Assembly: GCA_030390025.1 (NCBI GenBank)
Contig: CM059433.1
Coordinates: 113,584,001-113,648,000, forward strand
Direction of reading: 5' to 3'
DNA: 64,000 bases
DNA from: Squalus acanthias
Lineage: Eukaryota
Under the pieces are notes generated by a model. The model made no database searches. It was not told the DNA's origin and worked only from the letters and a program-made list of their open reading frames with translations. The translations under genes and the position numbers were made by a program. How positions within the stretch are numbered: the stretch's first letter is position 1; each line of letters opens with the position of its first letter. Shown piece by piece: positions 10,406 to 64,000 of this stretch.

Positions 10406-10457
10406 GTCTCAGAGAAGAGGATGAGCTCATTCAAGATGGTTTCCTGTCCAGACTCAG
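10406..10457 (+). CDS. LIN28B: Putative distal alternative LIN28B exon (52 nt; ATG at 10421; MSSFKMVSCPDS|G, phase 1)
   Basis: tttccag| acceptor and CAG|gttggt donor. Reads VSEKR-MSSFKMVSCPDS-G, in frame with exon 2. Resembles the recalled human upstream LIN28B exon VLQKR-MRSFNQVSSAP-G. Confidence 0.7.
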
Positions 10458-41600: not shown

Positions 41601-44460
41601 AATGCAAGTTATTTCTTTATATATCTTGAATCGCACAAAGCCCATTGCTGAAACAGAAAGCCGATGTATAAAATTAAACTCCGAGTAGCTTTCTTCAGCG
41701 CGACGAAACCTAAATCTGATCTGGCGAATTGCTTTTGGGGTTTAATTATACCCACAATACTGAATTCGATAGAAAAAAAAATCAGCGTTTGCCCAAGAGA
41801 CCTTTATCAATAGGACCTCAGAAAAGCGATGCCTCCTTGCTGGCTGGTCAAGGCAAACTTGCAGTGTAAGGTCGAGGTGCTAGAATGTAAAGTTTTTGGT
41901 GGGTGGGGGGACTTTAGCAAGAATTTAAACTTTATCTTCAAGTCGGATCTTTCAGGAAGAAACACTAATGCGTGAGAAATGTGTAATAAAGACTTAAAAA
42001 AGTTATTTTTGAGCAAACACAGAAATGCTTACTGGGGAACGCGGCTGCAGCCGGTTAAATTCCCTAAGCTGTTTTTTTTTGTATATTGTTAAAGGATTGC
42101 GATTTTTTTTTTTTAAAAAAGCTTTCTTTATAAAGAACAACTTGGCTGATTCTTTCTGAATGGGCTAAAGCTGGGATGTGGGCTTCCCAGCTGACCAAAC
42201 CTATACCTTTGCATGACTTGAAAGGCTGATGTCCTCGCACAGGAAATGAATGACTCGATAACATCTGACACCCAGTGACCACTCTGCTGACCCGATCTTA
42301 ATTCTCCTAATACGAGGAAAAGCCTGAAACAGCCGCTTCTGCCGGCCGGAGTCGGAGGATCAAATATTAAAGGAGAAACTGGGATATATCAGTTGTATTT
42401 GTGATAGTTGACTTTATCGATTTGTAATTTGGGGGGGGGGGGGGGGTTCATTTATGAGTTCGGGAAGCATTGCGCACTCAGTAAAACTGAAAGCTTTCAA
42501 CCCCCCCCCCCCCCTTAAAGACTGCCCATTTGCTCTGTTAACGGGGACTTTAAGAATCTCAAGAATTTAGAAGTATCCTTAACTTGTCTGAGGCGCGCGT
42601 CACGAATAAAATACCAACTTCGACCCCATATACTCATTGGGCGTTTGCAAATAAACTGATGCCTTTCGATTGTTTTTCATGTCTTTGTTTGAAATGAGTG
42701 CACTTACATCTTTTGCAGAAGGCAGGCACGTATTCTTTTGGAAACGGTGGGCATGTGGGCTTTTCTTGGTTGCATGTGGCTTCGTGGCGAAAGTAATCGC
42801 AGTAAAATGAAAGGTTATTTGTAAAACGTGTAGGGGACCGCAGCAGGGTTTTTTTAAAAAAGATTTGATGGTTTTAAATTCAATCGATGGCCTGGTACAA
42901 AGCGGTACTGGAAACACTGGAGAGAGAGAGAGAAAAAAGAGACGAGAGTGATCACAGAGCCAACAAACGCAACCATTTTAGGTCGGTTTAGGGATTGGAC
43001 TCAACTCACGCTCTGTTGAAATAACCTATAGGAAATTTACGGTTGAAGACTTCAAAGGAATTTCAGGACTGAGAGCTTCTACTTTAGTTAGTAGGTTGTT
43101 CTCTCTCTCTCTTCCCTCCTCCAACCCGTTAAAAAAAATCTGTCCCACACCGCCTGCGATGCTTGACCAGCACACTTTAGGGGACAAAAGTGCATGTTGT
43201 GCGAAAGCAAATGTTTGCGACTTTTAAGACGCTGATGTTAGAACAGCAAACAAGCCCTTTAAGTGCAAACTGCCCCTTACAATTGGTCAGACTAGTTGGC
43301 GCCGACACGTCGGGCCAGTTTTTTTTTGGAGTAAAACGCATGGTAATCGACAATGCATGGCAAGCAATGTTAAATCGGCCACTTTCCTCCCCCCCCCCTC
43401 CTTCCTTCCTAAAACATCAAGTTTTACCATCACGCCTCTCCCCTTTTCAGAGAGCCTTCCACATTTCTCCTCCAAACGCCAAATGTAAAGGTATTTCAAA
43501 ATAACAACAGGAGCAATGAAGCAAATGCTTGACCTTTGAACCCTTTTGGAGGGGCATTTCCTTTTAACAAAAAGTGAGGGAAAGTCGCATGTGGGAGAAG
43601 ACTAATCATCTTTAGTGTTGATGAGATATATATATATATATAGATATGTTTATGCTTTCAAAACTGGGCCGTCCCCAGGTACATGTGGCCTTAAAAGCCC
43701 AAAATGCTTGAAAAAGGCACCGCGTTATCTGTTGTTGCACCCGTCACTGGAATCCTCATTCTAAAATAAAGGCATCAAGTATGGCTTGTGTGATTGATGA
43801 ACCGTTTTATAGTTTAAACGGAGATCATTTCAAAAATGACATCTTACATTCAAATGGTATCACCTTGCTTTAAGGGGGAGACACAAAACTGCTGCTCCCC
43901 GATCGTGTTTATTACTCAGAAGGAAAAGTATCCAGTATCTTTTGTGAGATCTTTGATTATTTTGTGCGGAGATCTTCTCTGAATGTTACTAAATAAAAAT
44001 GCGTAGGCGACATGCCCGGGGTTCCTTTTGCACAATTTTAAAATCTGTCCTTCCTATATTTAACCTGCAATTTTTTATATATATATATCAGAATATTACA
44101 TTCACGAAACTCTTCGCTGCATTAACAATATTTAGATCCGTTTCACCAAATGCATAGGTTTATTGCTAGCGAGTGTGAACTGTCGAGATTTCTGAATAAA
44201 TTCACACACAGCATTGTCAGTTTATATATGATCGTGTTTATCATAATAGTTGATCTGTGGTTAGTTTTTATATATATATATATATATAGGTTGCATAGCT
44301 TGACGTTCCCCACAGAAAGCAAAACAACGGGGGAAGAGACCCTGTAGCTTTAAGTATATCGAGATGACCGGTTCATCAAAAATGTCGGACAAATTAGCTG
44401 GGTAAAAAATCTGGAGGTTTTTTTTGGGGGAATCATCGATTAATGCGGTGACAGGTTAGA

Positions 44461-44746
44461 GGAGAGGCCGATTGGCTCTGTTCTGCCTCTCTAAAGACTG
44501 CGATGTGTAATTAGCGGCAAGAAAGCATGTAATTGACGAGTCACGTGTGTGCCAGGGCCAGGAAGGGAAAGGAGGAGGGGGGGGGGGGGAACTAACGAGG
44601 GAAAGCACGTTAGACCATGCGAGCATTGGCGATTGCTAAATTTTTGATCCCTGAATCCTATGACGCTAGATTGATGCAGAAGATTACCCATTCCAAGGAA
44701 AAAGTTCTCATCGGGCGGGTTTGGACACAGGGGCCTGTGTGACAAC
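44461..44746 (+). promoter_or_regulatory. LIN28B: LIN28B proximal promoter and 5' UTR
   Basis: Inverted CCAAT (ATTGG 44471-44475) and E-box CACGTG (44542-44547). Blocks such as TGTAATTGAC..GTCACGTGTG, GAAAGCAC.TTAGACCATGCGAGC and TAGATTGATGCAGAAGAT match the human LIN28B 5' UTR as I recall it. Confidence 0.8.
44617..44742 (+). CDS. 41-aa upstream ORF in the LIN28B 5' UTR
   Basis: accATG...GTG TGA is open for 42 codons: MRALAIAKFLIPESYDARLMQKITHSKEKVLIGRVWTQGPV*. The stop lies 4 nt before the LIN28B ATG. Translation is not demonstrated. Confidence 0.55.
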   Translation: MRALAIAKFLIPESYDARLMQKITHSKEKVLIGRVWTQGPV

Positions 44747-44756
44747 ATGGCCGAAG
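44747..44756 (+). CDS. LIN28B: LIN28B canonical exon 1, coding part (M-A-E-G, phase 1)
   Basis: acaacATGGCCGAAG|gttact has a good Kozak context (A at -3, G at +4). It matches the vertebrate LIN28B N-terminus MAEG and joins exon 2 in frame (G+GA = Gly). Confidence 0.93.
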
Positions 44757-45223
44757 GTTACTTTTTTTCTCTCTCTCTTTCTCTCTTGTTTAAAAAAAAA
44801 TCCTTTTTTTTTTGCATACTTTTAAGAGATCGCAGAGGGGGCTTTTCCAAACCCATTGTTGTAGATCTCCCAAAATGTATGTACCCGCCCCCCATTTATT
44901 CACAACTTCAAAGGCTTTCTGAGGGCTATTGTGTGGACTGTTTGTGTCCGATTAAGCACAGTTTTCTCTCTCTCGCTCTCTCTCTCTCTCTCAGTTTGTG
45001 TGTGGAAGGCAACACTGTACACCTGCCCCTTAAGTTTGATCGGAGAACGCACGCTGGACGCTACAGTAGTTTTCTTCAGTATAATACGAAGCTTGTTCTA
45101 GTGGAGCAATACAAAACAAAAAAGCTCTCGCGATCGACGCTGTTGAATGTTGATCACGATTAGCGAAAAGAGCGGAGGGAGAAAAAAAAAGCCGGGCTTG
45201 TGTGACAGTGGTTTCTGCGGGAG

Positions 45224-45254
45224 ATGGGCTCCGTTTTAAACCAGCCGTATTCCA
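45224..45254 (+). CDS. LIN28A-like alternative first exon (or relic) in LIN28B intron 1: MGSVLNQPYS, phase 1
   Basis: gagATGGGCTCCGTTTTAAACCAGCCGTATTCCA|gttacg is 31 nt followed by GT, the same length and phase as the LIN28A first coding exon (MGSVSNQQFA|G). The donor is weak. Confidence 0.55.
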
Positions 45255-45526
45255 GTTACGTACGGTTTGCTAATCGTAATTTGCTGCCTCAAACATGGAG
45301 TAAAGGAGGATTGCACATGGATCAGAATCGATATTACAATGGCTTTGCCATATAGGCTGCAGCCAATGTCCATGTCGATGTGTGAAGTGCTTTCTTTCAG
45401 AAGCTTATTTTTAAATGTACTTTGTTAATTATTTCCACCCCCCCCCCACTCCTCTTTTCCGTCAGATAAATTGAAACCTTGTTTTTCTTCCCCCTCTCTC
45501 TCCCCTCTGTGTTTGCAATTGTCCAG

Positions 45527-45708
45527 GAGGGACGGGTAAAGGTGGTGGAGACGAAAAAGGAAAATTGACAGAGAAAGAAGACTCTCAAATCCAGCAGGGA
45601 GCAGGCCACTGTAAATGGTTCAACGTTAGAATGGGATTCGGGTTTATCTCCATGACCTCTCGGGAAGGCACCCCCTTGGAGACGCCAGTCGATGTTTTCG
45701 TACACCAA
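45527..45708 (+). CDS. LIN28B: LIN28B exon 2, N-terminal half of the cold-shock domain
   Basis: Long polypyrimidine tract plus gtccag| acceptor, and CAA|gtaagt donor. Translates (G)GTGKGGGDEKGKLTEKEDSQIQQGAGHCKWFNVRMGFGFISMTSREGTPLETPVDVFVHQ. The GHCKWFNVRMGFGFISM and VDVFVHQ motifs are LIN28B-type (LIN28A has GICKW..GFLSM). Confidence 0.98.
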
Positions 45709-46524
45709 GTAAGTTTGCATAATTCCGCCAGTTTCATTCATCAAAAAATGTTTTGCTTTTGGAGGGGGGGAGGGGTTGTTTGTAGAGAAACAGTTAAAGC
45801 TCAATTGTAAAAAAAAACCCCGCGCAATTCGTGTAAATGTTCTGGATTGTACGGTCGGAGCTGGAGCCGGCTGCCATCCCATACACGTTTCATGTGTGCT
45901 GTGCTTCCCCCCCCCCCCCCCCTTTCGCCAATCTGGAGTGGTGTAACTCTGGAAACCAGATAGCGAGAGGTTGTAGTTAACCGTTTCATGATTGCGTGGC
46001 TGAATACTTTTTTTTTTGCATAAAATGCTTTTTACTGTGCGGCGAATGCATGCATTGCCGATAAAAAGCGATGGAGAAAGTCTGATGCATGAACGAAGTT
46101 TAAAGGAAAACGCACACACATGGCAATTGGCGTTCTCTGCCGGTGCAAAAATATCAAAATAACGATCTGCTTGTCAAGGTCAGAGGTGAAACCCGGAAAT
46201 GCTAGACTCAAGACTGTTGCATGTTTTGTACAGGGAAATATTGAGGGGCGTATATTGTAATATACAGTCCCCTTTCGAAAGACTGAAAGCCTTAAAACGC
46301 CACCGTGATGTTTATTCAACGGCGTTTTCTTGTAAAACTTGGGGAGTGCAAGAGAAATGTTCCCTTTTCTCCCGCTTTATTGTATGACGATTCGCCTCGG
46401 AAGATTTCTGGAGGAGCAATTAGTTTATTAAAGGAAACTTGGATTGTTGATAATTGCAGCACCTTCAGATGCACTGTGCGAGATGTCTGCCCACTGTGCG
46501 ATCAATGATTGGCTTCTTACGATG

Positions 46525-46687
46525 CATACACAGAATCAAATCCACACAGAATGATATACACAGTGATATACACAGAATGATTGATATATACACAGAATCA
46601 TATACACAGAATGATTGGTATATACACAGAATCATACACACACACATCATTAAATACATAGAATTATACACACAGAATAATATACAC
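46525..46687. repeat. Degenerate minisatellite with core ATACACAGAAT
   Basis: About ten imperfect units of 11-20 bp. Confidence 0.85.
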
Positions 46688-48494
46688 TTTGCAGTCATTT
46701 GCCTCCCATAATTGGCGGTAAACAGATCTGAATATGTGAAATATGATTTTGTGGGGAGGCGAGGGGAATCAGACTCTGACTGGTTTGTGGCCACAAGCTG
46801 CACAATATGCCCTTGTGTTGTGCCTCGTCTTCCAGCGGTCCATTCCCATGCTTGTTTTCTAAACTTGTGTCTGTATTTAAAAGTTCTGATATTTTTTCCC
46901 CTCCCTCTTTTCTGTCTCTCTCTAAACCTTCCTTGGGTCGTTAAGTAAGGGGTTTACGACCTCGTAAGATTGCTTTATAGACGAATACAGCGCCAGGACA
47001 GGAGAGAAAAGCGTTTTCGGGTGAGTTGGTAGCACCCTCGTGCTACCGTGGCAGGGAGTTTTCAGGATTGTTGCCACCGGACAGACTCGGGCTACAATCT
47101 CCATTCAAGTCTCACCCCCTCGGTCAACGTTTCTTCGCGAATCTAATCGCAACGCGTAAAATTAGCATTTTAAAGAAAAACACAACCTTTTACCTGGTTG
47201 TGGCTCAAGCACAGCGTGTGTTTTGTGTTTACTGGAATGGTTCGACCCACGTTTGAATGAAGCGCTCGCGGTTTATAAGACAGCAAATCGCTTTTGCACG
47301 AACGTATTTGTTTATTGGCAATGATTTGAATCATTAATATTAAATATTGAAGTAACTGAGGTTTCCACCCCGTTATTACCCCGTTCTAGCTATGCTGCCC
47401 CGTGTATGTTAAGCTTTTTTGTTCCCCTCGCCATGTGTTCCAATGGGCTTTAGTTGGAATTTGTTGCATCCGTTTTTAGCAAATTAAATAAATTACATTT
47501 ATCGAGAGTGTTCTGCGAATTATATACTTAAATATATTCTCATCCGCTTGTGCTCTGAGATTGTTAACATTGTTAGCTAACACAATGACATACACATTTC
47601 CACAAGTGCATTAAGAGCATCTACTTGTTCAAGTAATTCTGTGCTGGTAAAAAAAAACTTGCCTCTTGTCAGATTTGTGGTAATTGTCATTACTGTAAGG
47701 CTTATGTTGAGCTGTCATTGTATGTTCTTTGACATGTATTCTACATCACAGTGATGAAAAGAGCAGTTTTTTTAAAGCATAGTTGCATTTTCGAATTGTG
47801 TACTGTTTAAATGCATCTTAATAGCTTCAGAGGTAAAATCACACGAGGGACAATTAAAGGAAAATGTAATCTTATTTTAGAAAAGGTGAATACTTCAATG
47901 TTTCTTCATGAGAATTAAATAATTCCAAGTTTTCAAACACCCTTTATGCAACCATCTTGCACAAGACTTCACTGAATCTATGACCAACAAACCACCTGTA
48001 GTTAGACTTCATGTTCAATATCTTAAAATTGATGGAGTAAAAGAAACCATGCATTATTTATGTGAATTTCTCAGTCAGTTGCAGCATAACCAGATCAAGG
48101 GAGTGAGGAATTGAGTGTTGAATTAATAGTTACCCACTATACAAAACTATATTTTAATATACAAATTGTTCTATGAGTTGGGAGTAATTAAAAAAAATCT
48201 TCTATTATAAGATGTAAACAGCCAGAAAAAAAATCTCAGCCGCATTTATTATGGTGTAAGAGTGCACCTGCTGTTGAATATCATTTGCATTTCTTTGACA
48301 CGTCCCTAATCGTTGTGGTCTCAATCAAACACCAATTAGTTTCAAGTATTCATGTAAACTTGCTTTGGTTATATTCATTCTCAATTAAGTTGTGCGGATG
48401 AAATAGATTTTGATTTTGAAGTTCTAGCTTTTATACACTTGCCCTGCTCTTGCTCACGGTTTGATGTTCAAACTTGTTTTATTTCTATGAAATA

Positions 48495-48607
48495 TTTCCT
48501 ACATTACAACAGTGACTACACTTCAAAAAAGTACTTAATTGGCTGTAAAGTGCTTTGGGACGTCCGGTGGTTGTGAAAGGCGCGATATAAATGCAAGTCT
48601 TTTCTTT
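48495..48607 (+). mobile_element. Deu-domain SINE 3' fragment
   Basis: tttcctacattacaacagtgactacacttcaaaa..atataaatgcaagtctttcttt. Confidence 0.85.
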
Positions 48608-49204
48608 ATGGTCTAGGGAGAGGTTTGGGCCAGCTGTTTTCTGAAGTTTTAAATTTTGGTGGTAGCTGTCTTTTAAACGATGTATTGATTCTTGGCCTTT
48701 TGTTTAAAAAAAGAAGCTTGAAAAATTGTTAGCTGCATTAATGGTGTGGCATACAGAATGATTGAAGTTTAGTTGTGTATTGAATAAGTCTACTCAATTT
48801 ATACCTGTAAAGGAAACCTACAGAATTAAGCTTCAAGAAAAACTCAAACACAGCGATGTGTGGTTTAGTTGCAACTTGCCAAAATGTCTTTTAACTTTTT
48901 GAAATATTTGAAAGTGTTTTTTTTCAGCACTTCAATCTTACACTTAATAGTAAATAATCCTCCTTGAATGATGCTAACATAATGCCCTGATAGTGTATGA
49001 AAATAACACTAAACGCAACAAGAGTTGTTCCTTAAAATAATTGAAAAGCAATCTTTGGATCCAAAGATTGGCTACAAAGCAACATTTCATACATCCATTA
49101 TTTCTAAATCCGCTAATATTAAGGATAAAAACAGAAAGGTTAGTTTAGAATATAACAGTGTAAACTTCCATTTCAGATATTTAGTTTTCTCTTGCTAATT
49201 TACT

Positions 49205-49570
49205 TTGCAATTTTTCTCCCCGCCCCTCCCTTCTCCTCAGCTCCTAAAGGCATTGACCTCTTGCTGTGGTATGGATCCACTGGTGCAAGGCACCCTCTGA
49301 TAGCTCACCAGAATAACTATTATTTATGTTTAGACGTTGAGTGCCAACAGGCTATCCAACTATGAAAGGCATCATAGCCAACCCCACTCCTGTCCTCCCA
49401 TGATTGTACAAAAGCGAAACTCTAGCAGGGGTTACTGGATAGTGATCAGGAATGGGATGCTTGGACAATTTTCGCCTCCCCCCCCCCCCCCCACAACCTT
49501 TCAACCAAGAGGTCGCTTAGGCCATTTGTAGCACTATCCTAGCTGAGATCAGCTAACTCAGCACAGGCCA
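49205..49570 (-). mobile_element. SINE family B, near full length
   Basis: agcaggggttactggatagtgatcagga and gctgagatcagctaactcagcacag. Confidence 0.7.
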
Positions 49571-52500
49571 AGGAAAGAGGTTTTTAAAAGTAGAATTTAA
49601 TATTTTCAAACAATTCTACATTATATTACAATGTAATATTGGAAGTAGCTAGTAAATACTGATAATTTAGCAGCCTTTAACAAAAACATCATAAATAACT
49701 GGGAATGTATAATAAAATATATGATGCATAAAGGATCTTAATACTGTAAATGAATGACTACATTTTATTATGCATCAGTTTTTAGTATTTTTATATAATC
49801 TGTTGACTGCCTCTTGTATTTGTGTGTTTATATTTACATCTGATTATCATTTTTATTTATTGTACAGAAAGGGGATCTATGCTGTCAAGGCACAAAATAA
49901 GATAATTATCTCCAAAAGAAAGGCTGACCAGATAACTTATGAGCGAAGTATTGATGGGTTACTTAGAGTTTCCTCGTGATTGGAGATGTTTAACATATGA
50001 TCTGGCTAACCACGACATATTCATAATGTGTGCAGTAGTTAAACTGGAAAAATACATTTTAATGGGTTTAATTTTTGTAATCGCTCTCTCAATCTGTTGA
50101 AGGTGATTTGTGATGTGATATGCCAGTGGAAAGATCTTTCCACTAGTATTTCTCCACAAGTCATGGAAATGTAAAAATATTTGAATTTGGGGCATTAATG
50201 TTGAGATTTGTGGTTCTCACTTCAACAATGTAGATAAGCAGGGATCACGACCTACTTAAGTTCAGTTTAAAGTCTTACATTGACAAAACCAAGAAGTGTA
50301 CAGATCTGCAAAAGTACAACTGTGTCACAATGTAAGAAAGGTTACTACGCAATCATTAATTTTCACTTTGCTGCAACTCCTGACTTTGAATGGAAATTTT
50401 GATTAAATTGTTTAAAACCTCAAATGTGACTATCTGGATTCTAAAATATACTAAAAGTGCTTTTTATTTTCAAAAAGGGGAAAATACATTGTGTGTGATC
50501 GTTATGTACCTCTAAAATATTTTTTTTAGAAGAGAGGTTTATTGATTATAGGATTGACTTTATATTTCAGTGTGTAAAAATAGGAGGTATTTTATGGTTT
50601 TAAAATAGTTTGAAAGATTACATTTCTAATTTACTAATTTATTTTCTCGACAATTTACTAAGAAACAGAGTTAATGATAGATTTAATGGTAGTGATGCTG
50701 AGTGTGCGTTACTATTGGTTTGGGTATGGGGGGAAAAACACAAAAAGGGCCATAGTGAGAATGTGAGCCTGACATGTTGATTTCAAGTGGGGTTAAACAT
50801 ATCGTCAAGATGGTTGAATGTATTGTAAAAATACTGTTGTAGTCAGCAGAGATAATCAGTATATTCAATCTATTGATTTTTGTTGCGAACATTGGCCCTT
50901 CTGTGTTGCCTTAATGCTACTGGCTTTTGTAAGGTAAACTACAGGAAATTGTAAATCACAATTTAATTTGTAGATCTGGCATAGCCAGCTCATAAAATGT
51001 CATATTTTGCAATGACATTTTAATAACTGTTATTTGATCAGCACGGTAAACTGTTTTAATATGTGTGAATTGCTGAGTTTCTAAAAATATTTAATTTTAT
51101 AAATCTGTTAAGCTATCTCAAAAAATGGACACAGTTCATTTTCTTTTAACTTGATGTAGTATTTTGTGGAAATTAAACATTGCTATTGGAGGAAAGATAC
51201 ATCAAGCTGTTTCTATTTTAGCATACCTTGGATTTTTTTTTGTTCCTTTCATTGTAATAGTCTCAAGAGTTTAAGTCCTGGAAAAATTACTATTACTGTA
51301 GTCCAAAAAAGACCATTGACCTGGTCCTAAAGGTGTTGTTTTAAGCCTATAAATAGTGCTTATAAAAATGGTGGGAAAACTGCACATATGGGGAGGGGAG
51401 GGGAGCAGAGTGCTATCTGAAACAAAAATGTAAATGCTGGGAATTAAATGTAGATGTTCAAGACTATGAGTAATAATGTGATCTGTCCAGTTACAGCACT
51501 TGTTTCTAATAAAGTATGTGGACAATCTGATGGCTTTAAAAGTAGGGTTTTGAGTCACTGTCTAAAAATGCAATAGGATATGTTCGTACAGACAAAGTTT
51601 AGTCCCTGCATTTCTCCCCCATGTGTATCAAGTTCACATTACTCATTGTTGTATTGCTTAAAAATGTTCTTTTCTTCACCCTTTTGGTTGAAGACAATTG
51701 CGTATATGCCTCTTCTATTTTAGAACTGATTTTTGACTATTTCGAAACAAAATGTTGTGTGGTAATTAATCCTCTTCATTTAAAGCTTTGTTCTCCTTGG
51801 GGTTTTCTATTCAGAAAAACAAATGAAGCTTCAGTTTGTTGCATGTAAACCCTGGTTGGGGAAGATGCTGTGAAGCTTCGAAAGCAGATACAAACTTAAA
51901 TATAAGGCATTCTTTAACTTTGAAAAGTATCAGAAAAGATGCGCTGTTACTCTAAATCCTTTTTATATGGAGTGTGGTACATAAAATATATATCAAGCTC
52001 TTGAAAGATTAACTTGGTTCTACTTAAAGTTGCAAGCATTTGGGGAATGCCAATTGTTTTAGAAAGTATGTTTAACTGATCCTGGATCAGATCTGGTTGA
52101 CACTATCATTCTTTGAAGATCTGGGCATTTGGCTTCCCACGGAGCATCCAACTAAACTGTCAGCCCCCTTTGATGCGATAAAATGGATAAAGCTCCCATG
52201 CTGATAAGACATTTGGAGCTGTTCCTGTCGTAAAATGATTTAAATATTTGCTCTTCACTTTGTCAAAGGTCTGGTTTCATTGAGTATTTGCATATGTTAA
52301 TTGTGTTCTGGTAACACAGGCTCCGTAACAATTTAGCACTTCTTCAACCCTCTCTTTGATTGTGGTCCTTTGCCTTGAAGTTATTCATTGCTTTAAATCT
52401 CTTTCTTAACAGGTAGTCACAATCGGAAAGAAAAAAAAAGGCTCCATTTAAGTTCAGACAATGTGAAACATTTTCATGTCAAGAGATCCTGAAAATGTTT

Positions 52501-53274
52501 AATAAACCTTTTAACATCTTATAAGTGCCTGCCTGGCAGTATTTCACAGCCGTAGTGTATAGAAATTGCCTGCCTTTTAAAATGCATTTTAATTGTTAAT
52601 ATATCTCTCAATTAAAGAAAAACATTTAAGAATAAAGCGTTACTACTGTCAGATTAGACCACCCGAGCGTTCCGTTCTTCAGTTAAAATTGTCCCTCAAA
52701 ATGTAACTGATAGTCAACATAAAAAATGATATCTTGATGTGAAAGTTGTAGCCAACAATGAGCAATCCAAGTATTCTTGATTACAGATGTACTGGCCAAT
52801 AACAAACCCTTTTCTACAAGGCTCATCATAATTTTAAAAATAATTTGTGATATTACACCCCATCCTTTTTATAAGGCTCCCTGTCCAATTAGTATTTTTA
52901 AGGTGGCTGCTGACTTTCCCTGCTGCATTATGTATTAGGTTATGGGGCACTCACTACAACATGCACCTCATTATATTAGGTACAAAATGGTCAGCTCCTA
53001 GAAAGCATCTTATAATGAGGGAAGGGCGTATTTTCGTTATGATTATAGTTGTATTTGCCTTTGTATGCAAGATTATAACAGCAGGGTTCTGAGGATAGTC
53101 TGATGGAAACATTTGGCATCAGTGGCAGTTTCAGCTTTTACTGCCAGCTGCCCCCAAATCTGGCTCCAACTGGAAGCTTGATGTTACTGGAGTGTTTATT
53201 TTAATGAGAAACGCAGGATGAACAGCAAGAAGATGAAATGCAAAATGTAGAGATGTTAGTAATGGCGCTTCACC

Positions 53275-54090
53275 ACTGGCTCAGTGAGTTTATTCAGCGA
53301 GTAGCTGAACCATACAGACTAGGAGGACCACAGGTTTGATCCCAAGTCTATGCTGAGGTAGCTGATCTACATAAGAACATAAGAACTAGAAGCAGGAGTA
53401 GGCCACACGGCCCCTCGAGCTTGCTCCGTCCGCCATTCAATAAGATCATGGCTGATCTACGATCTCAACACCACTTTCCTGCCCTATCCCCATATCCCTT
53501 GATTCCACTAGAGTCCAAAAATCTATCTATCTCAACCTTGAATATACTCAACGGCAGCCATAGCCCTTTGGGGCAGAGAATTCCAAAGATTCACAATCCT
53601 CTGAGTGAAGAAGTTCTTCCTCGTCTCAGTCTTAAAAGGCCGACCCCTTATCCTGAGATGTGCTCCCTAGTTCTGGACTCTCCAGCCATGGGAAACAATC
53701 TCTCAGACAGGGCTGTGCTCTGACTGCTTTCTGGGCGAACGAGAGGAAAATCAGCTAAGGTTCCCTTTCCTGATAATTATAGCCAGTGACCACTGCTGAA
53801 AGGCCACAGAGCAGACACATGGGATGAGGAGTGCTGCTCATGTGGACGATAAGCACCAACACTGACTGGTTGGGCTGCACGACCTATTTCTGTGTTGTAA
53901 TTTCTGTGTCTGGAGGACAGGTGAGGGCACCCGGTGATCAAACATTCTGCTTATGCTCATTACCAATGCTCACAGATGAACAACGGCGACTGGGTGAAGT
54001 ATTGGCAGATGACCCATACCCATTGAGCTGTACTCCAACAGTGAATCAACACCTTCATGAAAGGAAGTGCGGGGAAGAAATTGGCAAGAT
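53275..54090 (+). mobile_element. SINE family B interrupted by a minus-strand CR1 3' fragment (about 53371-53700) and a CR1 tail (about 53820-53910)
   Basis: Head tggctcagtgag..tagctgatct, then acataagaacataagaa (CR1 tail, reversed), then resumes at ctcagacaggg. Confidence 0.75.
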
Positions 54091-55474
54091 TTTTTAAATT
54101 AAAAAAGCGGTTGAAGAGATGATAGGAGTAACATAACTTGGTTGGGGGGGGGGGAGACTAAAATAATTTATTAACATTTTCTACAGGGTGTTGGTGAAAA
54201 TAGTCCCATATCTAGCAGTATTGTGGAAACTTTGATCTAAATTTGTCTCTGGGAGTAAGGAGATGTTCACAAAAACTATCACCATCACTGAACAGATTAG
54301 CTTTATACATCCTTATAACTGAACTTTGATACTCATTTTATTGCACAACATAGGGATAATTTTAATTTAATTTTAATGAACATTTTCAAAAACTTTTTTT
54401 GTATATAGTAATCATATGATTAAATATTGTATATTCTTACATGGTACTTGCAAGGTAATAGTTGGCATTGGAAACAATTGGTTAAGGCAAAGGGTGCATT
54501 CGTTTTCTTTAGCGCCGCCAGTAACCAGTGGTATAACATGACTGGTAACGAAAAGCTATTAATCTTTCCAGAGCAGTAAATGGAGTAAGTGGGAAAACAA
54601 TTTTCTTCATTGAAAAACCGAAGTGAAGGGCCATGGCCCATAATGGAGCACGCCACACCAAGGCTGAGAAGAGTAAAGGGAAACCAAATGAAATGAGAAG
54701 AAGTGATTAGGTAATGTTCAGCTTGGTTTTTTAAAAGCCTGAAAATTGTAAAGGGAGGAAGGAAGGACTGAGAGATAAATGGAGCTCCCCAGTTTTGAGT
54801 TTGTGGGAAAGAATGAGATACAGATCTTGATTTCAGCACAGGTGAGGTTCAAGGAAGGAGGAAAAATATGTAAGACATTAAGACAGGAACTTAGAAGAAA
54901 CACGAGTGGATTATTTCAAGAGTGCAGACCATAATGATATTGATTAAAATGAAACAGTACTTAAGACATGAATGGATTTATGGAGCATTAAGAGACGTTG
55001 AGGGGGAGAAAGTATTTGGGACAAAAGAGGAAACCCAGCTCCTTAGAGAATGTTGTTGATATAAAGCCACCTTTGCAGATAAAGTGTCATTTTACACAGT
55101 AAATTAATCAATAAACATGAATAGGCAATAGATAATGGGTCAGTGTACTTGTATGTAAGTTGGAAAGCAAGCATTCATTTTCTTTCTCGACCTGATAATA
55201 GAGGGTCCTCAGCCCTTAAGACACTTTGAAGATTGAAGACTCACAACTTTGTTATATTCAAATTGATGTTCTCCCCAATAGCTCAGTGTGGAATTAACTT
55301 TAGCGTACCAGCCAGTTCCTTCTAAAAACACGAATCAAAACTCAAACCTTTCACAAAATATGAACTTAAGTACAGAATATTATGGCTTGAGATTGCGGCT
55401 GCTGTTCATGATAGAATTTAAGGATTTAAAGTTTTCACAAAATACTATTGGTTGTTTCCCAATAGTTAAAAGCA

Positions 55475-55980
55475 GTGAGTGGCTGACCTATGAGGAGGGC
55501 CCAGGATACATCCCCAGTCTGTACTGAATTAGCTGATCGCAGGGAAGCAGCATCCTTTCGCTTGGGAGGGGGAAAAAATCAGCCAGTGTTGCTCCTGATC
55601 ATTAACCAAGGACTCCTGCTGGAAGATACCCGGACGGATACCTGAGGGCAAGATCAGGCTTGGTGTGATGTGCTCCCAAAATGGAGTGCCTTCCTGTATT
55701 TTTATGAAGTGGCCATTCTTCATGTGTGAGCCCAGACAATGAATGTCAGTAGGATATTCAACCATGGAGGATATTATCTGACCCCGTCCTCTCGATCGAT
55801 GCCCACACAAATGCACTTCCAACAAGGGTTACTGAATTGCAGTTGGGAGCAGGAACACAGGCTCATTTATTCCCCCCCGCCCCCCCATCTCTAACAAAGC
55901 ATAGACTAGAGGTCAAACTTGGGTCCTTACTAGTACTTATGGCCCAGCTATTCATGGCCTTAACTAGCTGAGCCATCGAA
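55475..55980. mobile_element. Two SINE family B copies in inverted, tail-to-tail arrangement
   Basis: Plus-strand motifs to about 55685; reverse-complement motifs (aagtggccattcttcatgtgtgagcc) from about 55707. Confidence 0.65.
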
Positions 55981-56479
55981 GGCACTGTGGTGCTTTTTGT
56001 AAAATCTAGTTTCACTGCATGGGCTTAGTTCCTTCCCATTTCATTCATATAATTTCCCCAAGATTATATATTAATCAATATACATATCCCAGTGATTTTC
56101 TTGAAATTCACATTAAGCCTTCACCACGTATTACCTTTTTTAAAAAAAAAAATGCAACTGGTACACTGCAGTATCTTATAAAGCACGACAACTTCAAACT
56201 GTTGTATTTTTATCCATTCAGTCCTGATGCCAGATACTGAAGAGATGGATCAAATCATGGATCAGCAAAGTGTCCATAAAAAAAAACGGCATCATTTACT
56301 CGAAAGAGAGAAAATTTAAGACCAAGCTGCGGAGTAGATTTGGTAGCATGTTGACGTAATACTAAAAGTCTTTATTACAAGTGAATGCCCTGTGGAAAGT
56401 CAGGTGAAAGCTAATTTCCTTGAGCATGCTTGCATCAGTGATGCTGCAGGTGTAGGTGTGGGGATCTAGAGCTTATCAA

Positions 56480-56496
56480 GCTCCATCTAGTGGTAG
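56480..56496 (-). promoter_or_regulatory. Candidate CTCF site
   Basis: The minus strand reads CTACCACTAGATGGAGC, close to the CCACYAGRKGGCRS core. Motif match only. Confidence 0.3.
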
Positions 56497-56809
56497 CAGT
56501 ATGTGGCAGTAAGCATGATAATTACAATGAAAATGCCCAATAACGATTGTGCGAAATTCATAGCAATTTTAATATTACAGATTTTGTAACTTGTATGTTA
56601 AAGTCCTCTTAATACTGACATACATCTGTTTCCAGGTCACATATAATGAGGTTCCATTTATGAATGCAGGTTGAATAAATCATGGTATGATTTAAGCACT
56701 TTTAAGAATATTTTTAACTGATTCGCTACAAATTTAGGCAAATCCTCTAGCCATAAAATGCACTATGTGTCAAAAGATAATCCTGCAACAATGACAATTG
56801 GACAGCAGA

Positions 56810-57175
56810 ACACTCCAGAGACTTGAGCACAAAAATCTAGGCTGACACTTCAGTACAGTACTGAGGGAGTGCTGCACTGTCGGAGGTGCCGTCTTTCGGA
56901 TGAGACGTTAAGCCGAGGCCCCGTCTGCCCTCTCAGGTGGAAGCAAAAGGTTTTGATGCGTGCATATTAGCTTCCGTGTAACAACAGAAAACGCTGTTGT
57001 TATTTTGGATTTCCAGCATCCGCAGTATTTTGCTATTGTATTAGCTTCCATGTATCCTACCTTACAACAGTGACTACACTTCAAAAGTACTTAATTGGGT
57101 GTAAAGCACTTTGGGACGTCCTGAGGTTGTGAAAGGTGCTATATAATTGCAAGTTTGTTTGTTTGTTTCTTTCTT
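56810..57175 (+). mobile_element. Deu-domain SINE with an internal deletion and a small family C insert
   Basis: ctccagagacttgagcac..ggatgagacgttaagccgaggccccgtctgccctctcaggtgg, and tail ending gcaagtttgtttgttt. Confidence 0.85.
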
Positions 57176-59619
57176 TTTGGTTATCAGTAGAGAGACTATC
57201 TCGAAGAGATGATCTTAGACAATTGAATCCGTTCCAGCTGCAGTAGAAAATTTTAATCTATAAATATTAAAAACTCAGCTGGTCTTTTAAAGATTTTTAA
57301 TTTTAAAACCTTTTTTGCTAATACCCATTTCTTCCCCTGCGCTCTCTCTCTCTCTCGTGAAAGTGTTGACTGATTTGCCACAGGCACCAGTCACCCTCCA
57401 CTATCTCCTGTAAGTAGCCACTACTCATGTGAGTGCTGGTGGGTTGGGCTGCTTGACTACAGGGGCATCACAGCTGAGCCTGATTCTGTCAGTTATAAGC
57501 ATCTCTCAATCTCCTCTGTATGCAAGACATACCCAACGGAGGAGAAATCTGCCCCATGTCTCGATCAACTTGGGAGAATGTAATGCGGACGATGCATTTC
57601 CAAACAGAAAAGTTTTGCATTTCCCAGCACTGATACCTCACACTAAGAAAATTATTTAAAAAAAACATGTTGGGGGGAGAGGTGAAGAAACTGCAGCGAA
57701 ATCTTTTCTTATCCTATCCCTTACTGTTCAAGATAGACACTTGTTTCTCTCACTTAGCAAGTACAAAACTGATCAGGTTTAAAGGTCCAGTTTAAGAAAG
57801 TATTAAAATCACGCAACATTTCTTCAATGAAAGACTTAACTTTGAGGACATTTTATTACCATAGTCTTTCAAAGGGTTGTACCTCATTGTGTAGCTAGGT
57901 TAATCTAAACCGGTCTCCATTATCCATAATATATCAACTCTATTATATTAGAAATAATGATGTGCTGATGAGAGAAATAAAACCAGATCTAGATGATGGC
58001 CTATTTAGTCTTTAATTTATGCTTTTTAGGATAATTTCCGACTCTAATTTTCTGTTCAAAGATATGTGGGAAATAGCAGCTACCTGCAATCTTTATTCAC
58101 TATAAGCAAGAAAGAAATACTTGCACTTATAGTCAAAGTGCTTCATACAGCTTTGAAGTGCACCTTTTGTTCTGTAGGCTACAAAAGTACTTAACCTTGT
58201 TTCCTATGCCTGTGCGCAGAGAATCTGCAGTTTTCAGTGCTTATTTTGTTTTATGTCATCTGAGCAACAACCCTGATAACCATTTCTAAAGATTATATTT
58301 TGAAAATTCTTCAAATCCAAGATAGCTTCAGTAAGTCCCACAGTCAATTTGAAAAAAAAAATAGGGTTTTTATTTTAGCAATGAGCATTTTTTTCTGAGT
58401 TATAAATGAAAATGGTCCATCATTTATTGGGTTCATCGTTGGTGGTGTTGTTTGAAAGGAAAAATAATTTGAAAACCACACAGTTATGAAGGGGCATTTC
58501 ATAGAATCTGATACTCTTGTCTCAGGATATAAACGAAAAGGTCCAATTGTGTTTTCTTATGTTCTGAGTAATTGGTTTTCGAGAATAGCTAAATGTGTTT
58601 TATTTGTATTGTTTTATAGCCTACCTCCTAATACAAAGAGTCAGAAAGTTACAAATCTGGCTATAATTGCTTGAAACGGCAGAAAAATGACAGCTTTGTT
58701 AATGTGCCTTTCTTAGTGCAGGATTTAACATGGAGGTGAAAGATGCTTTACATTAGTAATAAAGTCTCTGGTATTTGTCGTTTTGCATTTAAAAAATGCA
58801 TGTTAAAAAGTGACTTTTTATGATTGCACAAAGCATGTTTAATTTTGATGACCAAATTTATAAATGCAAGTTGATTTTTTTAATGGTTTTCTTAGCCACT
58901 ATTGTAAAGCTTGGGAACTGCTATTGAACAGTTACTGATTATGTGCATTCTCTTTTTATTTCTTGGCTTTTCCAATTGTGTTTTTGAAGGAAGCTTCCTT
59001 TTTGAGATTTTTTTTTCTCCTATTCCCTCTCTTTTGTTTTCTCAAACCATGTAACTTGCCTAGTCAAGTGAGGCAGGCAGGCAACCTGCTGCCCAGCCTT
59101 CCACCATTGTTACTTAGAAACCAGCCTCTAGAAATTGAGAGAGCTTGGGCAGGTAGAAATGGTACAGATCCTGTGTGTTTTGTCCGTCAGACGTTGGAAG
59201 CAAGAGTAACCATTAGAGTCTGCCAGGGCTTGGTGTTTGTAAGCCCTCTTTATATATCAATGGAAAATTACTGTGGACAAAACATCACAGTAAAGTCATT
59301 ATTAGAAGATAAAACAATTTAATATTTATAATATATAACATCCAAAGTAAGGCAAAGCATGAACTCAGCTTTTTCTGAGGAAACTTTGAATGCAAAACTG
59401 GTTTGTATTATATAATCGCTGATCTCTCAAATCTACATTCAGCAGCTATAGCCAGAGAGCTGAACACAGACAGCTGAGGAGGAAACCAATGAATGGGGAT
59501 GGACTTGGGCAGAATGGCTCTGAACAGATCATATATTTTACAGTGTATTCCAAAAGGTTATGCCAGCTGCGTTTTTACTTAATTTTGTTTTTGTGTTCTG
59601 ACATAATAAGCAATTATTA

Positions 59620-60006
59620 TTTCAGGGATGATCTAATTGATGTGTTTAAACTGATAAAAGGATTCAATTGGATAGGCAAAGAGAATCTATTTCCTCTGGT
59701 GGGGGAATCCAGAACAAGAGGGCATAATCTTAAAATTAGAGCCAAGCCCGTTCAGGAGTGAAATCAGGAAGCACTTCTTCACACACAGTGTATTAGAAAT
59801 CTGGAACTTTCTCCCCCAAAAGGTCGTGGACGCTGGGTCAGTTGCGATTTTCAGGTCTGACATCGGTAGATTTTTGTTAGTTAAGAGTATCAAGGGATAT
59901 GGAACAAAGGTGGGTAAATGGAGTTGAGGTACCGATCAGCCATGATCTAACTGAATGGCGGAACAGGCTCAAGGGACTGAATGGCCTACTCCTGTTCCTA
60001 TGTTCC
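59620..60006 (+). mobile_element. CR1 3' fragment
   Basis: RDDLIDVFKLIKGF..LFPLVGESRTRGHNLKI, with tail gcctactcctgttcctatgttc. Confidence 0.88.
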
Positions 60007-60126
60007 TGGTTGTGGAAATATTGCACCATTTTGAAAATTTGAAGGAAGATTCTGAATAAAACTCATGATTTAAATGTGTATATTTAGTTGCAGCCATTTA
60101 GGATGTGCATTTCTTATAGTGAACAC

Positions 60127-60282
60127 CAATGTTCTCTGTAAGCGGCGGGGCCGCGCAGGGTCCAGGAACCCCGTGCAGCCGGCTTTTCAATGAGAAAAAA
60201 CGCACACGCGCGGTATTTTGAATGGCCTGCGCAGCCTCTTAAAGGGGCCGCGTGGCGCCAAGCAAAATTACAGGGAACATTG
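60127..60282. mobile_element. 156-bp hAT-like MITE
   Basis: 15-bp TIRs caatgttctctgtaa / ttacagggaacattg (1 mismatch), flanked by 8-mers gtgaacac / gtggaaac (6/8, degenerate TSD). Confidence 0.8.
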
Positions 60283-63200
60283 GTGGAAACCTAGAAATAT
60301 ATTTATATATAAAATACTAATTTTTGTTTTTTCTTCTTTAACATATCTCTGCAACAGTACTTCGTGTAAAGGTAAAGAGCATCTTCCCCATATTACAAGC
60401 GCTATGGAAAACATCTTATCTATCTGTCTATCCTACCTACCTACAAATCAAAAGGCAATTTCCTCACTGCAGAAACCCTCCTTCCCTTATGATCACATAA
60501 GCTCTTCTGAGTCAGTAATTAAAATTAAATTGAGAAGTACAGATGTGCATAACTTGAAAATGTAGGTTTTAGCTGCAAAAATGATTTTATTTAAAAGAAC
60601 AAACTCAAGCGTAAGGTATGAACTATTGTTAGTTCCGTCTCATGCCCACCCCTTTAATAGTTTCCTCTTCCCTCTTCTACTCAAGGAATTCAGAACGAAG
60701 AAGCATTTTGCACCCTCTAGATCAGGTTGCAAGCCCCCTTCATCAAACCAACGAACTGGAGGCCAGGGAAAATCATTGCCAGAGTCACTGCTTTAAGGTG
60801 ACTGAATAAGTCATTCTGCTTCTATTACACAGGAATTTGGGATTTTCCAGGATTTTTACTGTTGTTCTGGGATTGCATTCGGCAGCTCCATCGATTTTCC
60901 TGTAAAAATTGTGAATAGGTGGCCTTGCTCATTGCCTAATGCCTTCTTTGACCATCAGTGGGCTGTTTTTCTTTCATTTGCCTATTAATAGTCTCAGTAT
61001 GCCGCATTAAAAACTTGAATGCTACTTGACCTTTGCTGTCTTAATTAACTGCCTGCCCATGAAAGACTAATATACAGAGTGCTGATCCATAATTCTCAAG
61101 TGATGGGCTAAGGAGATGAGACCAAGATTATCAAGTACTTCAGCTACAGTTTGGCTTCACAAAGTCTAAAAAGTGGACTTTATGTATGTATGCATTTATT
61201 TGTTTCTAAACCCATTGCGAATAGCTTTTGAGAGGTCGTTGGATGAAACTCAATCGAAAGACAAAATCTGCAAGTGAAGTAAAATAGAAAATGATGAAAA
61301 GATCCAGCTTTTTGAAGAGAAAAAAAATGATGACTGTTTCAGGTGTAGTCCCTTTGTCACAACTTCATCAGATACTTGCCTCTGGTCGACTGCTGTGTAT
61401 TTCCAGCATGCTCTGTTTTTATTTTATTGGATATAGTTAATTGGTTAGATTGATTATGGATTTTTCTTTTAAATCCAATGATTTTCCCCTTCCCCCTCCA
61501 CTTGCCTGGTTTATCTCTGATCACAATCCACACTCCAGCCAACACTTTGTTCTTATCTCCCTGGTCCAAACATAGTGCAGCTTTGGCTGGAGCCCTTAAG
61601 ACCACCCATCACCCTGGTCATCTGATACTCCTATTTATTTAAGAAGCTTGCAGCAGAATATGGTTCAGGGTGGGGGAGGGGAGGGGCTGTTTCCTGCAGC
61701 AGAGGTTACAGTCAAGCGAGAGTTAACTGTTAAAAAGCAAAAAAAAAGGGTTTCACGTTGTAAAAGCGCCGTTGTTCAAATTCTGATATAAATGTCACAC
61801 GAGAATCATGCCCGTTGGAATCCTGCTTCAAAATAAAATCCCTGCAGTAAACGTAGGTAGCAGTGCAATGGTCCTGGGGCAAGATGCAATTCTCGCACTT
61901 TTGATGCATTCAGAAGGTTAAAGTGGGCCCCCATTAAGATTAACCTCAGCCTATTACAGCTTTTTTTATTTGGCATTCAGACCCACCCTTGAATGGCTGT
62001 GGACAGCTAATACCAGGCTTTTGTTTCTTCCGCAGAAAGGTTTTTTTTAAAAAGCAAGAAACACTGTTCTCAATCACATTCACTGCTCTGATCACATGAC
62101 TTCCCCTTTAGTGAGTCACACATAGGTTGAGGGTGAATCAGGGAGTGAATTGCCATTCTGCAATTTCCTTCTGAATTTGTCAATATGTTCAGCAAAATGA
62201 AATGTAACCACAGTTTCCAAAGATTACATGTACAAAATGTATGCTAAGCATAACAGGAACTGGTTGTGGTATTTTTTTTAAACTGGTAAATGAGCTGCAG
62301 GGTATCTATTGACTAAAAAATAATTGGGATACTAGCGCACACAAATCATTTCCCTTTGACATGCTACTAGCTATTTCATGAGGGTGCTACATGTTGCAAA
62401 ATAATCTTGCCAGAAGAGCTCTCAAGTGATGGGAATAGGTGGGTGGAGAGGCCCCCCCCCTCACCCCCACTCCCTCCACTCCGCTTACATATGGGGGATG
62501 GGGACTTATTTTTAACAAGATGAAACCAATTTTGACACCACGCAAAAGCATGTTTTAAAGCAAATACATTTGTCAAATACCACTTATCCTTTTGCTGTGT
62601 AATTGTGAAGTACTTTACATTGGCTAAGTGGTGTATTAATACCGTGAGAGTACGGCTCCCAAAGATGAGTTCATTTAAAAAACAATTCAGGTAGCCATGC
62701 ACGACTCGGCGGTGGTTGCATGATGACTGAAGTTTGTTATCTTAAAAACACAAAATGAAAAATCTGGTTAATTACTCCTGAAAAGTTCCAACTGGCTCTC
62801 TAACTTAAGGCTGCAGTTGCATTGCACCAACTGGTACTGACTGGTAGCCGCAGACTGCAAAGCACAGATACCAACAATTGAGTTATACTGCAGATTGCAT
62901 TCTGCCTGCCCAGCAAAGGGCTCAACCCATGCGTGCGAAGATGTTTCGCCAGCTGCTAAACTTGTAATGCTTTGCAAGTATAGGTGGAAAGTGTCAACTT
63001 TCTTGTAACATTAAAAAAAGACGGCGGTAAGTTTTATAAAATGCCCAGGAGGTCTGAAAACCTTTTTTTTTGGAAAAGGTGTCACATTGCTCAGCTTTAG
63101 TGCGGTCTGGGGTCAGATTGCTGATGTGCGACTGAAACCGCTTTAGACTGGCACAGTGGTAGTATAATACTTCACCCTAAATGGCTGAAGATTCTTGTAG

Positions 63201-63549
63201 ATGGAAATTGATTATAGTTTTTTTGGCATGTTATTTTACCGAATAGCAATCTAGTTATCTTGAAAGATGAGGATCAACTTCATGGTTTAAAATATACAAA
63301 CATCTCTGCATGTTTCTTTTTAAAATAATTCTGTTAACTCTTCTGGAACTGAAGCTGTATATTTAGTTTTCCTTAAATTTACTTTCTCTCTGTAAGTAGG
63401 TGCATGTTTGAGGAAAGATTACCGTTGGTGAATATCCAGAGATATTTCTAAGACTTTTGTTCGTACCGACTCTTGCTGAATATGCTGATATTTGATTAGC
63501 CACAGCTACTTTATGTGCCTCTCAGATATTCTCTACCATCTAATGCAAA

Positions 63550-64000
63550 ATCTATTGATCTCTATCTTCTTGAATATATTCAATGACTGAGCATCCACAG
63601 CCCTGCGGTAGAGAATTACAAAAATTCACAACCCTTTGAGTGAAGAAATTTCTCCTCCGCTCAGTCCTAAATGGCCGACCCCTTATTCTGAGACTGTGAC
63701 CCCTGGTTCTAGACTCCCCAGCCAGGGGAAACATCCTCCCTGCATCTACCCTGTCAAGCCCTGTAAGAATTTTATATGTTTCAATGAGATTACCTCTCAT
63801 TCTTCTAAACTCTAGGGAATATAGGCCTAGTCTACTCAATCTCTCCTCATATGACTATCCCCCCATTCCAGGAATCAGTCTAGTGAACCTTCATTGCACT
63901 CCCTCCATGGCAAGTATTTCCTTCCTTAAGTAATGAGACCTAAACTGTACACAGTACTCCAGGTGTAGTCTCACCAAGGCCCTATATAATTGCGGTAAGG
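63550..64000 (-). mobile_element. CR1 ORF2 3' region, running off the window end
   Basis: LGLYSLEFRRMRGNLIETYKIL..RRNFFTQRVVN, same family as 22968-23805. Confidence 0.92.

Follow-up and report, generated by a model that had tools for sequence, protein, structure and literature searches.

Structure of the LIN28B Locus

The window, i.e., the whole stretch of 64,000 nt of the Squalus acanthias genome (contig CM059433.1) that was analyzed, contains the beginning of a LIN28B gene with an upstream open reading frame (uORF) in its first exon (Table 1). Judging by protein similarity, the gene downstream of the uORF is the cartilaginous-fish LIN28B; among the 120 matches to exon 2 that were listed out of 251, the best carry the name LIN28B and come from Heterodontus, Chiloscyllium, Narcine, Callorhinchus, and Scyliorhinus. 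The cold-shock domain of exon 2 was recognized as Pfam PF00313 with an E-value of 1.2e-5 and 25.5 bits, a score below the 27-bit cut-off because exon 2 carries just a part of the domain. No further LIN28B exons were found in 45709-64000 by a motif scan or tblastn (output from the first query), so intron 2 would be longer than 18 kb.

Table 1. Features of the LIN28B locus in the window.
Feature	Position	Strand	Evidence or remark
Distal alternative first coding exon, MSSF type, bypasses uORF	10421..10457	+	13/13 to the N-terminus of Heterodontus model P0001; GT donor 10458
uORF, 41 codons + TGA	44617..44742	+	On the first exon bearing the LIN28B MAE start; gap-free spliced X19 contig over it
Codons 1-24, in-frame homologous to the mammalian (PLUM-type) and teleost uORF N-terminus	44617..44688	+	Pairwise match to lemur
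4-codon uORF, main frame, ATG 44660, weak context	44660..44674	+	Inside the 41-codon frame
Met20, second in-frame ATG, weak context	44674..44676	+	Met aligned there in lemur, loris, and teleost Goodea
1-nt offset zone relative to bony vertebrates	44685..44693	+	Lemur P0054, coelacanth P0353
Mammalian uORF homology continuing at the DNA level; the shark uORF reads it in a different frame	44688..44735	+	7/16 in -1 frame; 10/48 nt
Spacer, 4 nt, from uORF stop to main ATG	44743..44746	+	Sequence
LIN28B coding exon 1, 10 nt, main ATG	44747..44756	+	Agrees with MAE-type LIN28B starts
Intron 1, GT..AG	44757..45526	+	Skipped by the X19 contig
Alternative first coding exon, MGSV type, inside intron 1, bypasses uORF	45224..45254	+	Joint 45254->45527, GT..AG, spliced in X19
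LIN28B exon 2	45527..45708	+	Cold-shock domain; shark LIN28B matches; one X19 record covers exactly 45527-45708

Two alternative first coding exons accompany the MAE-type start. The splice joint of the distal one, located ~34 kb upstream, is predicted and was seen in none of the compared contigs; this exon is the counterpart of the MRSF-type starts in amniote models. Starts similar to MGSV are also present in LIN28B models of mammals, reptiles, coelacanth, and sharks, as well as in LIN28A models. The promoter-proximal region 44444-44590 contains an ATTGG word (CCAAT box in reverse), TAATT words, and a CACGTG E-box at about 44543; MYC controls LIN28B. In all four compared runs (4/4), a second, more diverged contig was noted over 45604-45675, a part of exon 2, and this contig is probably a LIN28 paralogue.

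The uORF and Its Presence on a Spliced Transcript

The uORF is AUG-started and out of frame with LIN28B. Its ATG (uATG) at 44617 lies in the context agaccATGc, with A at -3 and C at +4, which is adequate and below optimal, and its stop codon is the TGA at 44740-44742. The main ATG at 44747 has a strong context (A at -3, G at +4). An earlier note on this DNA, made from the sequence alone, described a 41-aa uORF ending 4 nt before the LIN28B start, and the uATG, the stop, and the main ATG are indeed in place. In 5000 dinucleotide shuffles of the 200-nt stretch preceding the main ATG, ORFs of 41 codons or more, upstream or overlapping, appeared in 29%, and ones also stopping at most 10 nt from the main ATG appeared in 2.2%. 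Since 29% of the shuffles yield an equally long frame, the 41-codon ORF by itself is within chance and constitutes weak evidence.

Four sequence runs out of 24 listed were compared with the window: X19 (a related organism, RNA by the tool's guess), X17 (another relative, DNA), X5, and X13. One 210-nt contig of X19 covers 44577-44754 and passes directly to 45525-45556, skipping intron 1, with no gaps; given the shared AG, the jump 44754->45525 is the exon 1-exon 2 joint. The contig starts 40 nt before the uATG, and the uATG and the main ATG are located on one spliced first exon. In this related organism, the mature mRNA carries the uATG ahead of the main ATG; contigs cannot reveal a transcription start, and 44577 is a contig end. 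Four letters of the contig differ from the shark sequence. One is placed, at 44695, and the other three, given that well-supported rows were kept, are probably near the contig end. The X17 run covers 44305-44889 and, among the rows listed, has no gap in the uORF. The uORF is not covered in X5 and X13, which has no weight as evidence of absence. The short uORF frame is common to at least one, and probably two, related organisms.

Homology to the uORFs of Bony Vertebrates

Homologues of the uORF were sought by reading the N-termini of 366 fetched LIN28-family proteins. Starts at an upstream ATG (MRA) were found in five models, namely those of two primates, Lemur catta P0054 and Nycticebus coucang P0128, and of three teleosts, Goodea P0110, Centropristis P0234, and Centroberyx P0238. 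The figure of 5/366 counts gene predictions in which the uATG chanced to be taken as the start, and it does not measure how common the uORF is; the teleost and primate evidence is drawn from such predictions rather than from aligned DNA. Shark residues 7-24 and lemur residues 3-20 are identical at 12 of 18 positions (pairwise E 2e-6); for the loris model the count is 11/18. After MR, the shark has an insertion of four residues (12 nt, residues 3-6) relative to lemur, with the frame kept. The frameshift-aware score against the lemur N-terminus is 77, while 299 random stretches of the window averaged 18 and did not exceed 32. Homology to the N-terminus of the mammalian uORF was found in this way through the lemur and loris models.

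The lemur and Goodea N-termini have a local alignment score of 36, not reached in any of 5000 shuffles, and MRAK and DVxLM are kept between lemur and teleost. Both Met codons are also kept in the otherwise diverged Goodea model, which is likewise predicted by a uORF acting in cis. The shark and Goodea N-termini are similar at the chance level when compared directly (local score 16, with 3190 of 5000 shuffles as good; frameshift-aware score 24 vs. a control maximum of 35). The link between the shark and teleost uORFs runs through the lemur.

The mammalian N-terminus with the same uATG that the earlier note had described was matched in the two strepsirrhine models, i.e., in primates other than human, and the words AKF and RLMQKIT, said to be retained, are present in the alignment with both. 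The frame-preserving 12-nt indel exists relative to lemur; however, it is not the sole difference, as the frame is broken by a 1-nt offset after codon 24.

Protein searches with the 41-mer returned no candidates at near lengths and 0/9 at longer lengths, and there was no usable match in the Atlas and none in Pfam. The one match among representative proteins, a 1147-aa repeat protein, is unrelated and was rejected as due to chance. The DNA pattern of the uORF was absent from metagenome contigs; that of exon 2 was absent from genome and viral contigs and present in one metagenome contig (L001). In L001, positions 3900-4134 of the minus strand are a vertebrate LIN28B exon 2, similar to bird and turtle models; the contig ends 244 nt before the match, without exon 1. 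The overlapping frame of this exon stays open for 35 codons and then reaches a stop, short of the place where mouse PLUM would end.

A Frame Break after Codon 24

The distance from the IDAED word to the main ATG is 77 nt in the shark vs. 78 nt in the coelacanth model P0353; 78 nt is implied for lemur. P0353 reads the leader in the main frame, and its first five residues correspond to the shark -1 frame and the later ones to the main frame, which places the offset at about 44685-44693. When lemur residues 21-36 are compared with shark residues 25-40, there are no identities in the uORF frame (0/16) or the +1 frame (0/16), and there are seven in the -1 frame (7/16). The coelacanth residues force GGG where the shark has TGA. 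Beyond the main ATG, the overlapping frame of shark exon 2 is closed by the TGA at 45566-45568, 16 codons into the CDS; an X19 variant there keeps that stop. Because of the offset, the GGG in coelacanth, and the early TGA of exon 2, the length of the uORF, its stop, the 4-nt gap, and the C-terminal 17 residues are lineage-specific, absent from lemur and coelacanth. The 4-nt gap pointed out in the earlier note is real in the shark; however, it characterizes this lineage, and the mammalian frame is 85 aa long and overlaps the CDS.

The similarity of DNA does not end at the break. The minimum number of nucleotide changes leading to the lemur residues is 8/54 before the offset and 10/48 after it (-1 frame), and the same measure at 5000 random places of the window gave means of 31.6 for the before-part and 26.1 for the after-part (minimum of the latter, 17). 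Since the values are about alike on both sides, the similarity appears to be indifferent to the frame of the shark uORF. The residue identity before and after the break (12/18 vs. 7/16) yields p 0.30.

Substitutions in Related Organisms

At least three substitutions in the uORF, among the rows listed, distinguish the two relatives from the shark: E13Q, K27E, and V35F. All are non-synonymous, and just one of the three is within codons 1-24. The chance of 0/3 synonymous changes is 0.013 at dN/dS 0.1 and 0.43 under neutrality. In exon 2 of X19, there are one non-synonymous and four synonymous changes; compared with 3/0 in the uORF, these tiny counts give a two-sided Fisher p of 0.14. Among the rows listed, there are no X17 substitutions in 44444-44590, against three in the uORF and ten in 44337-44443. 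Given that the 147 nt ahead of the G-run are unchanged in these rows, the uORF seems to sit in a block that is conserved for other reasons too.

These data do not show the conservation at the peptide level, or the microprotein, that the earlier note had proposed: similarity continues across the frame break, and the three listed substitutions are all non-synonymous.

Relationship to PLUM and Other Known uORFs

According to the mouse study (PMC12657964), the uORF of mouse Lin28b encodes PLUM, a protein of 85 aa that starts with an ATG in a partial Kozak context and is read in another frame, overlapping exons 1 and 2. Its translation is supported by Ribo-seq, an antibody, and LC-MS, its conservation is stated among mammals only, and it is described as a pluripotency microprotein acting through L1td1, with trans effects shown in mouse (PMC12657964). 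The peer-review file of the same paper reports that the uORF represses Lin28b: an ATG-to-TAA change abolishes the repression, a Kozak context strengthens it, and CRISPR frameshifts made within the uORF leave Lin28b levels unchanged; a reviewer asked how much of the PLUM effect is repression of Lin28b. L1TD1 is dated to the eutherian ancestor (PMC4161310). A translated lin28b uORF of mouse ES cells is called highly conserved in vertebrates in PMC4712605.

The frame length of PLUM can be reproduced by arithmetic: a frame that starts 119 nt ahead of the main ATG and ends with a TGA at CDS offset 136 has 85 codons. The calculation assumes a uATG at -119, with the lemur donor 10 nt before the main ATG as is the homologous shark GT, and a TGA at offset 136 as in the shark window and in rodent-length N-termini (P0103, P0114). 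In exon 2 of the shark, the TGA at 45653-45655 in the overlapping (PLUM) frame fits the end of an 85-aa frame. Mainly because the length computes to 85 codons, the uATG at 44617 would be the same start codon as that of PLUM. The shark uORF is very probably the counterpart of the mouse PLUM frame, their orthology being based on position, frame, and length.

Both uORFs occupy the first exon of the same gene, start with an ATG in a partial Kozak context, and are out of frame with LIN28B, and the first 24 codons are homologous by way of the primate models. They differ in length (41 aa in shark vs. 85 aa) and in that the shark uORF stops at 44740-44742, before the main ATG, whereas the mouse one overlaps exons 1 and 2. 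The last 17 residues of the shark peptide are unrelated (0/16 after codon 24), and the overlapping frame of the shark is closed early in exon 2. By its length, lack of overlap, and C-terminus, the shark LIN28B uORF falls outside the 85-aa PLUM. The partner of PLUM is eutherian-specific (PMC4161310); since L1TD1 arose in the eutherian ancestor, no L1TD1 partner is expected in the shark, and the trans mechanism should not apply.

As for other known uORFs, that of PMC4712605 is alike in being translated and conserved in vertebrates, and in its available text it comes without a mechanism or a frame comparison. CPuORFs (ESUCA, PMC7530721) resemble the shark uORF in being homologous across vertebrate orders ahead of a regulatory gene. 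However, in the main text of that study the class is defined by Ka/Ks <0.5 and sequence-dependent repression, and the small sample of shark substitutions points the other way; the frame that CPuORFs keep across homologues is kept here for codons 1-24 and lost after them by the 1-nt offset. LIN28 is not named in the ESUCA main text. Leaky-scanning overlapping uORFs (PMC10275272) are alike in that the main ORF is reached only by ribosomes skipping the uAUG; they differ in that the shark stop lies 4 nt before the main AUG and reinitiation is formally possible, though disfavored. According to the same source, reinitiation drops with uORF length, with an eIF3 half-length of 12 codons in one study and retention up to 60 in another, and improves with distance in cited IRES-started cases. 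The literature search returned no description of a shark or non-mammalian form of this frame; Figure S11 of PMC4712605, Fig. 1f of PMC12657964, and the tables of PMC7530721 may hold one. The element is already known in mammals, and what is new is the shark geometry.

Possible Function and Evolution of the Shark uORF

We favor, with a probability of about 0.62, the explanation that this is an ancient cis-repressive uORF of LIN28B, constrained at the level of DNA and bypassed by leaky scanning. Comparison of the sequences indicates conservation of the start codons and the DNA, which does not extend to the full peptide or the 4-nt gap. A part of the scanning ribosomes would start at the uATG (or at Met20), translate the 41 codons, and terminate 4 nt short of the main ATG. 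The stop would be too late and too near the main AUG for good reinitiation, and these ribosomes would mostly be recycled and lost to LIN28B. LIN28B would then be made by ribosomes leaking past the uATG, with the same outcome as that of the mammalian overlapping frame; since the short frame gives the same outcome, the 1-nt offset rewriting the second half of the peptide could be tolerated. Selection would keep the upstream AUGs, a frame open as far as the main ATG, and the promoter/5' UTR block as DNA. The brake would be skipped by transcripts with either of the two alternative first exons, and the choice of promoter would decide whether it applies. The action of PLUM on L1TD1 would be a later mammalian addition.

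Translation of the shark uORF is expected by analogy with mouse. The proposal of the earlier note that a conserved uORF dampens LIN28B is partly borne out, in that the start is conserved, a spliced contig from a relative carries the uATG, and the mouse counterpart is translated and repressive (PMC12657964 and its review file); as an element, however, it was already known (PLUM).

It is unlikely, although not negligibly so, that the LIN28B uORF of the jawed-vertebrate ancestor carried a selected peptide module in its first 20-24 residues (MR, AKF, DxxLM), active by stalling the ribosome as a nascent peptide or in trans with a partner other than L1TD1, with the C-terminal half dispensable. The 12/18 identity between shark and lemur, the frame-preserving 12-nt indel, the somewhat better conservation of the first 24 codons than of the rest (7/16, p 0.30), and the MRAK and DVxLM kept between lemur and teleost point in this direction, as do the Q at codon 13 that X17 shares with lemur and the trans effects of mouse PLUM (PMC12657964). 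However, the DNA similarity continues past the frame break (10/48 vs. 8/54), none of the three listed changes is synonymous, though just one of the three is in codons 1-24, the mouse frameshift knock-outs keep Lin28b levels (review file of PMC12657964), and the sole mapped partner, L1TD1, is eutherian-specific (PMC4161310). If such a module did exist, sharks would have a PLUM naturally cut to half its length, which would mark out the ancient core, the eutherian L1TD1-binding role in pluripotency would have been grafted onto an old brake, and the strepsirrhine donor may even fuse the uORF peptide to LIN28B.

Even less probable is a frame that is a mere passenger of a conserved DNA or RNA element, either promoter-proximal or a site of RNA-protein contact, with translation mattering little in sharks. 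Such a passenger would fit the absence of listed X17 substitutions in 44444-44590 next to three in the uORF and ten in 44337-44443, the 29% of shuffles with an ORF this long, and a conservation that ignores the frame. It would, however, be hard for an AUG with A at -3 to persist neutrally in lineages as far apart as sharks, teleosts, and primates, and repression in mouse depends on the start codon (PMC12657964). A structured RNA was rejected, as Rfam has no match in the window and the fold z of -1.07 is unremarkable. Finally, an assembly error or a private variant, with sharks truly having the overlapping frame, would fit a single-base offset, the lack of uORF cover in X5 and X13, and the X17 gap rows being listed only in part; it is very improbable and already largely refuted, as the X19 contig spans the uORF with no gaps, X17 has none there among the rows listed, and an overlapping frame would stop at 45566-45568 anyway.

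The start codon is far older than L1TD1, whereas the shark shares neither the second half of the peptide nor the overlap, which suggests that the brake in cis came first. In this sense, the shark locus is a natural experiment on cis repression vs. the trans effect of PLUM, and constructs with the shark 41-mer, PLUM 1-24, and a frameshift followed by its restoration could separate the cis and trans functions. The result is an evolutionary footnote to a known element and not a new system.

In the models of Lemur catta (P0054) and Nycticebus coucang (P0128), the first 36 codons of the uORF are joined in frame to LIN28B exon 2, as if spliced from a donor some 10 nt ahead of the main ATG; the homologous shark GT is at 44737-44738. 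These joins are possibly a fusion isoform or a modeling artefact. A shark fusion via the GT at 44737 was rejected, as it would leave the uORF out of frame with exon 2. Three teleost models make similar uORF-LIN28B joins at other points.
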